A DNA stretch of 64,000 bases from Gammaproteobacteria bacterium. GTDB lineage: Bacteria > Pseudomonadota > Gammaproteobacteria > UBA4575. Position numbers and translations under genes: made by a program. The stretch spans positions 352,001 through 416,000 of the forward strand of contig CBDCTA010000022.1 in NCBI GenBank assembly GCA_965221955.1. The letters are read 5' to 3'. Under the pieces are notes generated by a model. The model had not been told where the DNA came from and ran no database searches. It was given only the letters and a program-made list of their open reading frames with translations. Below, one piece after another: positions 37,246 to 56,703 of this stretch (positions within the stretch are counted from its first letter, which is position 1; each line of letters starts with the position of its first letter).

Positions 37246-37259
37246 TTGATTTATATCAA
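37246..37259. promoter_or_regulatory. FNR/FixK box (perfect)
   Basis: TTGATTTATATCAA between divergent cls and cytochrome c; TACTCT at 37281 fits class II spacing. Confidence 0.85.
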
Positions 37260-52973: not shown

Positions 52974-53216
52974 TTACAGTCCAACTAATTCGGCATGCAT
53001 GTTATGTTGTTTCGCAAGTTTTACAAATTCTAAAGACTTAATTACTTCAGGATCATAAACAATGATCATTAAATGAGGTTTATCATCGTGAAAGGATGCA
53101 GAATAAACACCATTCTCATGTAATAGTACATCACGAAAATCTTCTAAATTGCCATGAGACAATTCTTCGTCTATATGCAACATCACATCAACAGTTGTAG
53201 CTTCCTTATCGTTCAT
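52974..53216 (-). CDS. Small hypothetical protein, HMA/ferredoxin-like pattern without CxxC
   Basis: DVMLHIDEEL...GV...PHLMIIVYDP...AELVGL; RBS AGGAG; FNR box upstream. Confidence 0.75.
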   Translation of the reverse strand: MNDKEATTVDVMLHIDEELSHGNLEDFRDVLLHENGVYSASFHDDKPHLMIIVYDPEVIKSLEFVKLAKQHNMHAELVGL

Positions 53217-53279: not shown

Positions 53280-53293
53280 TTGATATATATCAA
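53280..53293. promoter_or_regulatory. FNR/FixK box (perfect)
   Basis: TTGATATATATCAA about 64 bp upstream of the 80-aa gene. Confidence 0.85.
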
Positions 53294-53338: not shown

Positions 53339-53665
53339 TTATTTGTATTTACAAAAAACATCATGTAACGATGTAACGATATGAGACAAATCTTTATCCA
53401 CGAGTTTATAGTAGATAGTTTGTGATTCACGGCGTGTTTCAACTAAATTGTGCTGTCTTAATACTGCAAGATGCTGGGATAAGGCAGACTGACTAAGATC
53501 TACAAATTCATTAATCTCACTTACCGTCATCTCGTTCTTAACCAACATACATAAAATCATCAATCTTGCTTCATGAGCAATAATTTTTAGCGTACGAGCT
53601 ACGTTTTCACGTTGCTCTAACATATCGTCTGCAGATTCTTCTCTTAGTTTTGCTTTAACAGGCAT
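53339..53665 (-). CDS. ArsR/SmtB repressor of the BigR/SqrR (persulfide-sensing) type
   Basis: RLMILC39ML, SQSALSQHLAVLR, TRRESQTIYY, DVFC105; 66-residue Cys spacing as in SqrR C41/C107. Confidence 0.85.
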   Translation of the reverse strand: MPVKAKLREESADDMLEQRENVARTLKIIAHEARLMILCMLVKNEMTVSEINEFVDLSQSALSQHLAVLRQHNLVETRRESQTIYYKLVDKDLSHIVTSLHDVFCKYK

Positions 53666-53704
53666 AAATATTATCTAAGTACAGCATTAACTATAGTTAT
53701 AGAT

Positions 53705-53750
53705 ATTAGATTTTACTAATTTAGCTTGCGCTAAATTAGTAAAATTTGAT
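53705..53750. promoter_or_regulatory. Long inverted repeat, candidate ArsR operator
   Basis: ATTTTACTAATTTAGC-TTGC-GCTAAATTAGTAAAAT (16-bp perfect arms, 53710-53745). Confidence 0.7.
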
Positions 53751-53816
53751 ATACATATCCTATTATATAGCAAGCCTATATAAAAATAGATAGCTAAATA
53801 CGAAAAATTGATTCAA

Positions 53817-53830
53817 GTGATTGAAATCAA
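53817..53830 (+). promoter_or_regulatory. FNR/FixK box (9/10)
   Basis: GTGATTGAAATCAA about 70 bp upstream of the DsrE2-like gene. Confidence 0.65.
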
Positions 53831-53901
53831 ACAGCTACATAAATATTCAAGTTTTAATGGACCGAAGCAACATTCAATTGGAGACAACCTAAACGATACA
53901 C

Positions 53902-54525
53902 ATGGATAGAGAAGTGAACACAGCAAGCCAATTAACTGGTAATAAATTTGAAACAGAAGAATTTAACCGCTTATTTGATGAACGCTTTGAGCAAAAAATG
54001 CATGAGCGTGAAATAAACAAAGTTCCAAGAATGGCACTCATTGCCACGAAAGGAACGTTAGATATGGCCTATCCACCTTTTATTCTTGCTTCAACTGCAG
54101 CAGCAATGGGTTGGGAAGTCTCTGTTTTTTTCACATTCTATGGTCTCAATTTACTTAAAAAAGAAATCAATACAGAAGTATCACCTCTTGGTAATCCTGC
54201 AATGCCAATGAAAATGCCTTTCGGGCCAGAGTGGTTCAAAAACATTGATTGGGAAATTCCAAACATTGTAACCAGCAATATCCCAGGTTTTGAAAGATTA
54301 GCAACGTTACTGATGAAAAAAACTTTGTCATCAAAGGGCGTAGCGAGCCTAAGTGAATTACGAGAACTTGTTATTGAGGCCGAAGTTAAATTAGTTGCAT
54401 GCCAAATGACTGTAGATTTATTTGGCTATCAAAAAGAAGATTTTATTAAGGAGATTTCAGATTGGGTTGGTGCTGCAACATTTTTACCTTATGCGCAAAA
54501 ATCTGATATCTGTTTATTTATTTAA
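53902..54525 (+). CDS. DsrE2-like (DrsE_2) sulfur relay protein
   Basis: ATKGTLDMAYPPFILASTAAA, FFTFYGL, VACQMTVDLFG, GAATFL. Confidence 0.9.
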   Translation: MDREVNTASQLTGNKFETEEFNRLFDERFEQKMHEREINKVPRMALIATKGTLDMAYPPFILASTAAAMGWEVSVFFTFYGLNLLKKEINTEVSPLGNPAMPMKMPFGPEWFKNIDWEIPNIVTSNIPGFERLATLLMKKTLSSKGVASLSELRELVIEAEVKLVACQMTVDLFGYQKEDFIKEISDWVGAATFLPYAQKSDICLFI

Positions 54526-54565
54526 AGGGACTGTTTAATTACTTGAAATTTTAAAAGGAAGAAGG

Positions 54566-55924
54566 ATGTTAAATAAAAAAATACTGATTGTACTAAGCCT
54601 ATTTTTTGTGCCGATTATGGCTAATGCTACTAACGGTTATTTTGCACACGGAACAGGTTTAATAAATAGAGCACTTGGTGGTGCTGGTGTTGCCTTCCCA
54701 CAAGATGCAATGGCTGGAGCAACCAATCCCGCAGGTATGGCGTTTGTAGGTAATCGAATTGACATTGGTGCAGTATTGTTTAAGCCTGATCGTGAATATT
54801 CTGCAGGGCCGAGTTTAATTAACGGCAATATGGGAGCATTTACTATCGGTCAAGGTACTGAAGAGAGTGGAGATGAAAATTTTATTATTCCAAGTTTTGG
54901 TATCAACTATATGCTTACCGAGCGTGATGCCATTGGTTTATCGGTTTATGGAAATGGTGGACTGAATACAACGTATGATGGAGGTAGTGCATTTTTCTTC
55001 AACCCAATGGCAATGGGCGTAGTTAATCCTCCTGGCACATTTGGTGATGGCACGGCTGGTGTAGATCTTTTTCAAATCTTTTTTAATTTTTCCTATGCAC
55101 GCCAATTTTCGGATAATTTTTCAGTAGGAATTAGTCCAATCTTTGCGGTACAAGGATTTCGAGCCAATGGATTGGGTGCATTTGCTGGGTTTACAAAAAC
55201 ATTTAACGAAAGTGGTTTTACTACGGTACCAGATAATTTAACCAGTAATGGAACAAACTACTCATACGGTGGTGGAGTGCAAGTTGGAGCTCTTGCAAGA
55301 GATGTCATTGGCACTGCAGATTTTGGAATTTCATACCGTTCAAAGATGTATATGGATGAATTCGATGATTATTCGGATTTATTTGCTGAAGATGGTGACT
55401 TTGATATTCCTTCCACATTATGGGCAGGTTTTGCAGTCGACTTAACTGAAAAAATAACTTTAGTCGCAGATTATCAAAAGATTTGGTATGAAGATGTCGA
55501 AGCGGTAAGTAATGATATCCAAAACTTAGAGGCTTGTCCTATTGCTATGTTGGGCGGCACAGATGTTGAAAGCTGCTTGGGTGGCGACAATGGTGCAGGG
55601 TTTGGTTGGGATAACATTGATGTCATCAAAGTAGGTCTACAATGGCAATCCCACCCTAATGTCACTATGCGGTTTGGTTATAGCCATTCTGATCAGCCCA
55701 TTGATGATGATCAAGTGCTGTTTAACATATTGGCACCTGGAGTGATTGAAGATCACATTACCATTGGTGCGACAATTGAAACCAAAATGGGCGAGATTAA
55801 TTTAGAAGCCATGCATGCCTTAAGTGAATCTGTGAAAGGGCGTAGTGCTTTTGATCCTACACAAGAAATTCGTCTTAAGATGAATCAGTTTGAACTAGGT
55901 ATTGGTTGGTCAAAAGAATTTTAG
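54566..55924 (+). CDS. FadL/OmpP1/TodX-family outer-membrane transporter
   Basis: Signal peptide then TNGYFAHG..ALGGAGVA..NPAG hatch, YGNGG, FDIP, FNILAPG, C-terminal F. Confidence 0.88.
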   Translation: MLNKKILIVLSLFFVPIMANATNGYFAHGTGLINRALGGAGVAFPQDAMAGATNPAGMAFVGNRIDIGAVLFKPDREYSAGPSLINGNMGAFTIGQGTEESGDENFIIPSFGINYMLTERDAIGLSVYGNGGLNTTYDGGSAFFFNPMAMGVVNPPGTFGDGTAGVDLFQIFFNFSYARQFSDNFSVGISPIFAVQGFRANGLGAFAGFTKTFNESGFTTVPDNLTSNGTNYSYGGGVQVGALARDVIGTADFGISYRSKMYMDEFDDYSDLFAEDGDFDIPSTLWAGFAVDLTEKITLVADYQKIWYEDVEAVSNDIQNLEACPIAMLGGTDVESCLGGDNGAGFGWDNIDVIKVGLQWQSHPNVTMRFGYSHSDQPIDDDQVLFNILAPGVIEDHITIGATIETKMGEINLEAMHALSESVKGRSAFDPTQEIRLKMNQFELGIGWSKEF

Positions 55925-55943
55925 ATCCCGCTGGAGTTATTGT

Positions 55944-56174
55944 ATGGAGCAAAAAATATTTGAGCTGGATACATCAGGGCTTAATTGCCCATTGCCAGTA
56001 TTAAAGCTAAGAAAAATTTTAAAGACAATGGATTCAGGTCAAGAAGTAAAAGTGATTGCCACAGACCCAGGGTCTGTTAAAGACTTTGCGTCATTTTGTA
56101 ATCAGACAGGAGATCAATTAATAGAATCTAAAGAAGAAAATGGAAAATATATTTATAAAGTAAAAAAGAAATAA
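55944..56174 (+). CDS. tusA: TusA/SirA-family sulfurtransferase
   Basis: LDTSGLNCPLPVL, ATDPGS..DF; start ATG 55944 with RBS GGAG. Confidence 0.9.
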   Translation: MEQKIFELDTSGLNCPLPVLKLRKILKTMDSGQEVKVIATDPGSVKDFASFCNQTGDQLIESKEENGKYIYKVKKK

Positions 56175-56187
56175 TCTAGATAATCTT

Positions 56188-56703
56188 ATGTTTAAGAATT
56201 TATTTATATCACTCACATTGTTGATAATTTTATTTTTATCGGTTGCACAAGCAGAGTCAGTCCTCATGTCACCCGAATGGGGGCAGTTAGCCTGTGAGGC
56301 ATGGAATGAAGATACAATTCTTACTATTAAACTCGTGGAATCTGGCTGGGTAGAAAATGATTTAAATAGAGGCTACAAGGCCATTACGTTATATCGATCA
56401 GATTGCCCAAAGAGTAAAAGGGCTCAATTAAAGATCAGTTTAGTAAATGAAAAAGTTGAATGCACATATGGCGGTGGAGTTATCGAGAAAACAGTAGATA
56501 AAAAAGTTGATTACATTATGCATGCGAATACGCAACGTTGGATCGAAATGGGTAAAGGCGAGTACGGTCCTATGAAAGCTATGATGCTGCGTAGATTAAA
56601 GTTTAAAGGTCCAAAAATGGAAGCCATGGGTAACATGGGACCATTTAAAAATTTTTTATTACTTGCGGGCTCAGTTCCAAGCGATGCATCTAGCTGTCCA
56701 TAA
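56188..56703 (+). CDS. Exported SCP2 sterol-carrier-like protein
   Basis: Signal peptide ..VAQA; DYIMHA...W...GPMKAMMLRRLKFKGPKMEAM resembles the SCP2 C-terminal half; four Cys. Confidence 0.7.
   Translation: MFKNLFISLTLLIILFLSVAQAESVLMSPEWGQLACEAWNEDTILTIKLVESGWVENDLNRGYKAITLYRSDCPKSKRAQLKISLVNEKVECTYGGGVIEKTVDKKVDYIMHANTQRWIEMGKGEYGPMKAMMLRRLKFKGPKMEAMGNMGPFKNFLLLAGSVPSDASSCP

Follow-up and report, generated by a model that had tools for sequence, protein, structure and literature searches.

What is an outer-membrane channel doing in a putative operon with two sulfur carriers? The question is raised by positions 53339..56703 of a 64,000-nucleotide stretch of DNA (the window) from a gammaproteobacterium of lineage UBA4575 (assembly GCA_965221955.1, contig CBDCTA010000022.1, positions 352,001 to 416,000). 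Here a repressor gene, arsR (minus strand), diverges across a spacer of 236 bp (53666-53901) from dsrE2-fadL-tusA-scp2 (plus strand), whose intergenic gaps are 40 bp (dsrE2/fadL), 19 bp (fadL/tusA, measured to the ATG at 55944) and 13 bp (tusA/scp2). All five open reading frames (ORFs) lie at the coordinates given in a preliminary description of this DNA, and its picture of an ArsR protein with two cysteines (C39/C105) opposite four packed genes agrees with the coordinates and the family profiles. The gene spacing suggests that the four genes may be co-transcribed. No inner-membrane transporter is encoded in the cassette and, as had been claimed, no fatty-acid or aromatic catabolic gene adjoins it in the window. 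At about even confidence, we read the cassette as an operon, switched by sulfane sulfur and low oxygen, which would import hydrophobic zero-valent sulfur to feed the rDsr pathway, both the cargo and the direction of transport being putative. The observations in its favour include the distribution of the proteins among genomes, the dsrE2 and tusA neighbours of fadL, the pairing of fadL with yeeE, and the presence in the host of a separate gene resembling E. coli fadL.

The host is an rDsr/Apr/Fcc sulfur oxidiser. Its genome (96.6% complete) holds dsrA, scoring over the cut-off inside a dsr cluster, together with aprA, fccAB and soxYZ. It also encodes a YeeE protein, and both dsrE2 and tusA are present in a second copy. 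The yeeE gene lies outside the cassette, on contig C4 beside soxYZ/fccAB. Two further FadL-family genes are present, one of them E. coli-FadL-like (E-value 8e-44). No soxB, soxAX, LipS2, sLpl(AB), LipT, HdrB/C or RuBisCO was found in this 96.6% complete genome; LipS2, sLpl(AB), LipT and HdrB/C were looked for by tblastn. Phosphoribulokinase is found without a RuBisCO large subunit, and soxYZ without soxB/soxAX.

Occurrence was scored in 401 genomes drawn evenly from the class, with a threshold of E<=1e-55 for the FadL clade and with SCP2 scored in 400. The draw contains dsrA in 125/401 genomes, the FadL clade in 83/401 and the SCP2 protein in 21/400. Members of the FadL clade were observed in 71 of the 125 genomes with dsrA and in 12 of the 276 without it; eight of these 12 have soxB, and dsrA or soxB accompanies the clade in 79/83 genomes overall. 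In two of the remaining four, fadL adjoins yeeE, rhodanese or sqr-like genes. Every SCP2 genome (21/21) has dsrA (18) or soxB (3). With one genome per family (n=170, membership being taken from the order of listing), the FadL clade was present in 37/70 genomes with dsrA or soxB vs 0/100 without, and the exported four-cysteine SCP2 in 8/70 vs 0/100, the families themselves still being related. The phylogenetic profiling proposed earlier as a check has therefore been run, and both proteins prove to be almost wholly limited to sulfur oxidisers. Their link to these organisms is strong. The two occur together less regularly, only 11 of the 21 SCP2 genomes having a clade FadL.

Gene neighbourhoods were examined for 80 scp2 loci, the best of at least 574, and for 80 metagenome fadL loci, the best of at least 584; 16 of the sequences in the alignment used as fadL query came from scp2 loci, a possible source of bias in the counts for the fadL loci. 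Cassette genes were counted by tblastn because the codon-score gene caller drops some small genes (tusA and arsR in locus L012). Among the 80 best scp2 loci, fadL was present in 24, dsrE2 in 20, tusA in 15 and dsrE2 with fadL in 19. The three genes dsrE2, fadL and tusA were found together in 14, which come from other Gamma- and Betaproteobacteria, and ArsR was present in addition in 5. Some sulfur gene was found in 37 of these 80. The 80 best fadL loci contain dsrE2 in 30, tusA in 23, ArsR in 5, a DUF302-like periplasmic protein in 19 and scp2 in 2, with a small YeeE/YedE-type gene directly behind fadL in 8. A sulfur gene is present in 55 of the 80, and 14 of the other 25 loci are shorter than 4 kb. 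The complete order of arsR with dsrE2-fadL-tusA-scp2 is unbroken in three congeners; this and the 14 scp2 loci that combine dsrE2, fadL and tusA speak against a chance arrangement.

These counts in fadL and scp2 loci define the stable unit as (tusA-)dsrE2-fadL, which recurs with an exchangeable periplasmic partner of which SCP2 is an optional one. The five-gene form is found mainly in part of the host genus. The idea that the five genes make up one fixed pathway, put forward in the preliminary description, was therefore given up, given that SCP2 occurs in 2/80 of the best fadL loci, that 43/80 of the best scp2 loci lack a sulfur gene and that 10/21 SCP2 genomes lack the FadL clade. Coupling to sulfur genes holds for fadL, in 55/80 loci, but fails for scp2 in those 43.

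Some of these neighbourhoods deserve separate mention. The commonest partner directly behind a clade fadL is the exported DUF302-like protein of about 300 residues (L190:2134-3063 and 18 further loci). A clade fadL and a small yeeE have as neighbours, in L168, L171 and L172, cysE, cysK and the genes for a family 2A encapsulin and its desulfurase cargo. Two unlike FadL genes are adjacent in L122, L128, L131, L132, L154, L180 and L229-L231, several of them at the ends of sHdr lipoate-assembly clusters, and such pairing suggests two different cargos. In L016, L054 and L056, operons of the form yeeE-yeeE-(ygaP-adaptor)-sqr-(RND)-scp2 have SQR and an efflux pump in place of FadL.

The channel gene itself (54566..55924, plus strand) encodes a FadL/TodX-family outer-membrane protein. 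It matches PF03349 at 44.5 bits (cut-off 29.7), carries the NPA motif at 54-56 and gives an AlphaFold2 (AF2) model with a predicted local distance difference test score (pLDDT) of 90, 14 long strands and TodX as best fold match. The profile of the clade scores better on TodX/TbuX/CymD (E-value 3e-29 on TodX) than on E. coli FadL (2e-7), and assignment to the long-chain fatty-acid subgroup was rejected on these values. The monoaromatic channels TodX, TbuX and CymD, which share PF03349, the N-terminal hatch and the NPA motif, are thus the best matches in sequence and fold. The clade differs from them in its low structural identity (16-17%), its loop cysteine pair, its distribution among sulfur oxidisers and the lack of adjoining ring-oxidation genes. 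The loop pair, Cys324 and Cys337, is kept in 113 and 112 of 113 close matches; it is found at the aligned columns in only 14/22 context homologs and is therefore probably structural. The same slot is taken by divergent FadLs (24-27% identity) in L025, L053 and G324. In an unrooted tree built by a quick method from 70 hand-picked rows, the window gene groups with the genus copies, while sulfur, lipoate and yeeE contexts are interleaved. A clade-related fadL (36% identity) leads a NiFe hydrogenase run on an Ideonella dechloratans plasmid (L146).

The last gene of the cassette (56188..56703, plus strand) encodes an exported SCP2-fold protein (PF02036, 32.7 bits against a cut-off of 21.3) with a hydrophobic N-terminus, a signal peptide and four cysteines, Cys36, Cys73, Cys92 and Cys170. 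Its AF2 model (pLDDT 89) superimposes on Thermus thermophilus SCP2 (2cx7) with a Z-score of 14.1 and a root-mean-square deviation of 2.6 A over 124 residues. The likeness to the Thermus protein (2cx7, 1wfr) is one of fold; identity is 21%, and the window family adds the signal peptide, the four near-invariant cysteines and seven invariant methionines. The cysteines are present in 120, 120, 120 and 119 of 120 matches, and all four are kept in 263 of 294 well-covered rows. Cys73 and Cys170 are jointly lost in 16 of the 294, largely one Acidithiobacillus cluster, and this joint loss suggests that the cysteines form the structural disulfides 36-92 and 73-170 and do not provide a free persulfide site. 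The core is rich in methionine and aromatic residues, the seven methionines and several tryptophans and phenylalanines being invariant in 52 rows. The SCP2 clusters were the only ones named by the atlas search, and the named homologs belong to Acidithiobacillus, Thermocrinis and Sulfurihydrogenibium. Two SCP2-domain genes, one of them 26% identical to the window protein, flank a ring-hydroxylating dioxygenase cluster on the Rhodococcus opacus plasmid pROB02 (L147).

The two sulfur carriers are more readily placed. DsrE2 (53902..54525, plus strand) is of the long form, with PF13686 and NF047629 (218.7 bits, cut-off 210), and has Cys167 within an ACQMT motif and Cys204. Its hydropathy profile, with a peak of 1.39, shows no clear membrane helix. 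A paralog (71%) is encoded on contig C4 beside fccAB. TusA (55944..56174, plus strand, starting at the ATG at 55944) matches PF01206 at 77.7 bits and has CPLP as its CPXP motif; it falls below the cut-off of the enterobacterial equivalog NF001423 (69 of 78 bits). The TusA step of sulfur delivery is known in Allochromatium. According to PMC11094781, the cysteine of the TusA CPXP motif binds sulfur, and the role of DsrE2 is unclear. The cassette resembles the rhd-tusA-dsrE2 relay of Allochromatium vinosum (PMC11094781) in having a CPXP TusA and a DsrE2 in an rDsr organism. It differs in having no rhodanese and in adding an outer-membrane channel, a periplasmic SCP2 and a repressor of its own.

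This repressor (53339..53665, minus strand, 108 residues) scores over the cut-offs of PF01022 and NF033788, and C39 and C105 are its sole cysteines. Its best NCBIfam match is the BigR equivalog NF040642 at 99.4 bits, under the cut-off of 155, and so it is filed as BigR/SqrR-like and not as BigR. The cysteine spacing of 66 is that of Cys50/Cys116 in SoxR (matched by spacing), through which SoxR senses polysulfide (PMC10451225). The ArsR fold, the spacing and the position divergent from sulfur genes are shared with SqrR, BigR, SoxR and sHdrR (PMC10451225); the score under the BigR cut-off and the putative target, a channel-carrier operon, set the protein apart. Of the earlier suggestion of an SqrR/BigR sensor, then, the fold and the cysteine pair stand but the assignment to the BigR equivalog does not.

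The spacer contains an inverted repeat with 28-nt arms (53698..53757), whose score of 17 was reached by 0/200 dinucleotide shuffles. Its core (53716-53739) consists of two 9-bp near-palindromes separated by 6 bp; three congeners keep it, and the exact core pattern occurs once in the genome, with one further site at two mismatches. This pair is a candidate operator for ArsR. An FNR-like box (53817..53830, plus strand), one mismatch from the FNR consensus, occupies the same position in L012 and L014 (one mismatch each) and L013 (two mismatches). As these congeners are close kin, conservation of the candidate operator and the box is within-genus only. FNR-like boxes are enriched in the window (23 against 6.5 expected, at no more than one mismatch from the consensus), the chance mean being 6.5 one-mismatch sites per 64 kb. 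A sigma-70 scan gave 9 sites against 18.5 in shuffles and none within the arsR-dsrE2 spacer. Repressor type, operator-like element and FNR-like box would together be consistent with an operon induced when sulfane sulfur is present and oxygen is low.

A working scheme can be drawn from these parts. By analogy with SoxR and SqrR, reduced ArsR would sit on the palindrome pair and repress until polysulfide links Cys39 to Cys105 and frees the DNA, and FNR would probably activate at 53817. The TodX-like barrel would then pass a greasy cargo through the lipopolysaccharide layer, the candidates, suggested by the genome profile and the neighbours, being S8, neutral polysulfanes or organic polysulfides. 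To judge from its fold, the disulfide-stapled SCP2 may hold the cargo in its pocket, and its role as an optional periplasmic buffer or shuttle is put forward tentatively; the slot is more often filled by the DUF302-like protein. The inner membrane might be crossed by partitioning or through the YeeE encoded beside soxYZ/fccAB. DsrE2 and TusA would finally accept the cargo as a cysteine persulfide and hand it on to DsrEFH, DsrC and DsrAB. The YeeE/YedE importers SoxT1A, TsuA and YedE1E2 (PMC11582611, PMC10812762) offer a likeness, as they import sulfur with TusA-like acceptors and are frequent neighbours of the FadL clade. Unlike the components of the cassette they are inner-membrane proteins; none is encoded in it and one is encoded on contig C4. 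The wider proposition, that the FadL clade would be the outer-membrane entry for S0 in about half of the proteobacterial sulfur oxidisers and SCP2 a periplasmic S8-binding protein shared with Acidithiobacillus and Aquificota, a kind of carrier for which no description was found in the literature covered, is doubtful.

A number of results weigh against sulfur import. S8 may cross membranes unaided. No FadL-clade match was found in 54 of the 125 dsrA genomes and no SCP2 match in 107 of them, and therefore neither protein is required for sulfur oxidation. The genomes are related and their counts overstate independence, and G216 and G258 have the FadL clade without dsrA, soxB or sulfur neighbours. 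The 43 of the 80 best scp2 loci without a sulfur gene have been mentioned; hydrolase or wax-ester synthase genes neighbour scp2 in 11/80. Plasmid members of the FadL clade at 33-36% identity adjoin a NiFe hydrogenase or a non-sulfur region. Within the host genus fadL is found in 14 of 15 genomes and 11 of its 16 matches lie outside the cassette; the four congeners that were read throughout have it as the last gene of a run made up of two GST-like genes, one gene for an AlkB-like monooxygenase and genes for a cbb3-type oxidase. The preliminary description had said that predominantly lipid-catabolic contexts would tell against it, and this is partly the case in the genus, with its AlkB-like/cbb3 region, but elsewhere the neighbours are mostly sulfur genes.

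The genus copies lead directly to the alternative that the channel supplies the AlkB-like monooxygenases with a hydrophobic organic substrate, which might be an alkane, alkene, aromatic or alkyl sulfide, and has in this host moved into a sulfur/low-oxygen operon. The host keeps the gst-gst-alkB-like-...-cco run (C29:139853-147757) without a fadL and has four AlkB-like genes, so the window fadL (75% identical) could serve those enzymes. The nearest solved relatives of the channel are monoaromatic channels, and relatives of SCP2 at 26% identity occur in the Rhodococcus ring-dioxygenase cluster. Against this, only 7/80 FadL-clade genomes outside the host family gave an AlkB-like match, compared with dsrA or soxB in 79/83, and AlkB supply was rejected as a general explanation of the clade. 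Moreover, DUF302 and hemerythrin-like genes usually come after the congener fadL behind the alkB-like/cco run, and the fadL-DUF302 pair resembles that in sulfur clusters. We regard supply of AlkB-like enzymes as unlikely here; an alkyl-sulfide cargo would reconcile the two contexts. A further alternative starts from LipY, which is presented in print as a putative transporter of fatty acids and whose gene closes the order lipS1-slpl(AB)-lipT-lipS2-lipY (PMC10332631; 10.64898/2026.10.01.755906). The channel would then import octanoate or lipoate to be used in lipoylating proteins of sulfur oxidation, and SCP2 would act as a fatty-acid carrier. This too counts against sulfur import: the gene that immediately follows lipS1-slplAB-lipT-lipS2 in G288 belongs to the FadL clade (39% identity) and by gene order would correspond to lipY. 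The likeness to the LipY of Thioalkalivibrio sp. K90mix (PMC10332631), a FadL-type gene in a sulfur-oxidation cluster, is one of setting and, in G288 and other genomes, of position. LipS2 lies within 5 kb of the clade fadL in 10 of the 15 genomes with both, and SCP2 folds are bound to fatty acids in solved structures. However, these 15 are the only LipS2 genomes among 80 of the 83 FadL-clade genomes tested, leaving 65/80 without a match; the host gave no tblastn match to LipS2, sLpl(AB), LipT or HdrB/C; and in L154, L229, L230 and L231 a second, distant FadL stands between lipS2 and the clade gene, such a second FadL being E. coli-FadL-like in L122. Lipoate import was rejected as a general explanation of the clade, and for the window gene it is distinctly unlikely.

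The direction of transport may also be questioned. SCP2 might bind surplus sulfane sulfur formed in the cell or in the periplasm, and the barrel or an RND pump might discharge it, as detoxification under a BigR-type repressor. RND pump and adaptor genes each occur in 7/80 of the best scp2 loci, as in the yeeE-yeeE-adaptor-sqr-RND-scp2 operons of L016 and L054, which is a point against import; fadL is found within sqr/rhodanese/yeeE clusters in genomes that have neither dsrA nor soxB; and BigR governs H2S detoxification (PMC10451225). The adjacent YedE1E2-type pairs, however, import zero-valent sulfur and do not export it (PMC10812762), and in three loci fadL-yeeE lies beside cysE/cysK and a desulfurase encapsulin, making export quite improbable. 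To our knowledge the characterised FadL-family channels are importers, which also counts against it. Alternatively FadL and SCP2 may be co-regulated passengers which handle a lipid, quinone or gas during sulfidic microoxic growth (upkeep of envelope or globules) and carry no sulfur. The scp2 loci without sulfur genes would fit this, as would the enrichment of FNR boxes across the window and UbiJ, an SCP2-fold protein of the quinone pathway. A predicted sterol carrier abundant in vesicles of Fervidacidithiobacillus caldus, with a putative family link to SCP2, was likewise read as lipid-related (PMC10853474). This explanation is very unlikely, as it leaves unexplained why fadL lies, in many lineages and repeatedly, tightly beside dsrE2/tusA, yeeE and repressors of the persulfide type.

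Each part of the cassette belongs to a known family, and a FadL in sHdr clusters is already in print under another role. No proposal of sulfur uptake by FadL/TodX/OmpP1 or by SCP2 was found in the literature covered, some Allochromatium and Thiobacillus primary papers, subscription journals, preprint supplements and file 13 of PMC10332631 lying outside its scope. A symbiont genome paper mentions fadL as a fatty-acid exporter (PMC4287430). The idea that CT1305, an S0 protein of Chlorobaculum, belongs to the FadL family found no support, there being no mention of FadL in the passages searched of 10.1101/2024.09.30.615447; those of PMC6067878 do not mention FadL either. Sulfur import is described as poorly understood; SoxT1A is named as the one importer so far demonstrated among dissimilatory sulfur oxidisers, and not as a general solution (PMC11582611). 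SoxT1A acts at the inner membrane; FadL and SCP2 are candidates for the outer-membrane and periplasmic steps. What is new here is the tie of the SCP2 genome profile and the FadL-clade genome counts to sulfur oxidisers. Import by the FadL clade, if true, would have the lipY label reassigned and would be relevant to sulfur cycling, bioleaching and biodesulfurisation.

Some minor observations concern the genus and the window. The four AlkB/XylM-like monooxygenase genes of the host (C29:141376-142506, C29:202134-203213, C26:24488-25642 and C14:51429-52586) have as neighbours GST-like (two), ferredoxin-reductase-like (one) and ArsR (one) genes, and alkyl sulfides are one possibility for their substrate. 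The cassette has decayed in congener G004 (L239), where tusA and scp2 are broken and dsrE2 and arsR gone, and in G414 (L249) a second fadL behind ccoP is broken. Downstream of arsR an 80-residue ORF (52974-53216, minus strand) has no Pfam or NCBIfam match; it is conserved at this position in congeners and a perfect FNR box at 53280 accompanies it. The surrounding region, 37246-63807, is a low-oxygen island with a FixL/FixJ-like pair, a Crp/Fnr gene, three Usp genes, Hsp20 and c-type cytochromes, and it contains six perfect FNR boxes, at 37246, 46660, 48947, 53280, 55701 and 59269.

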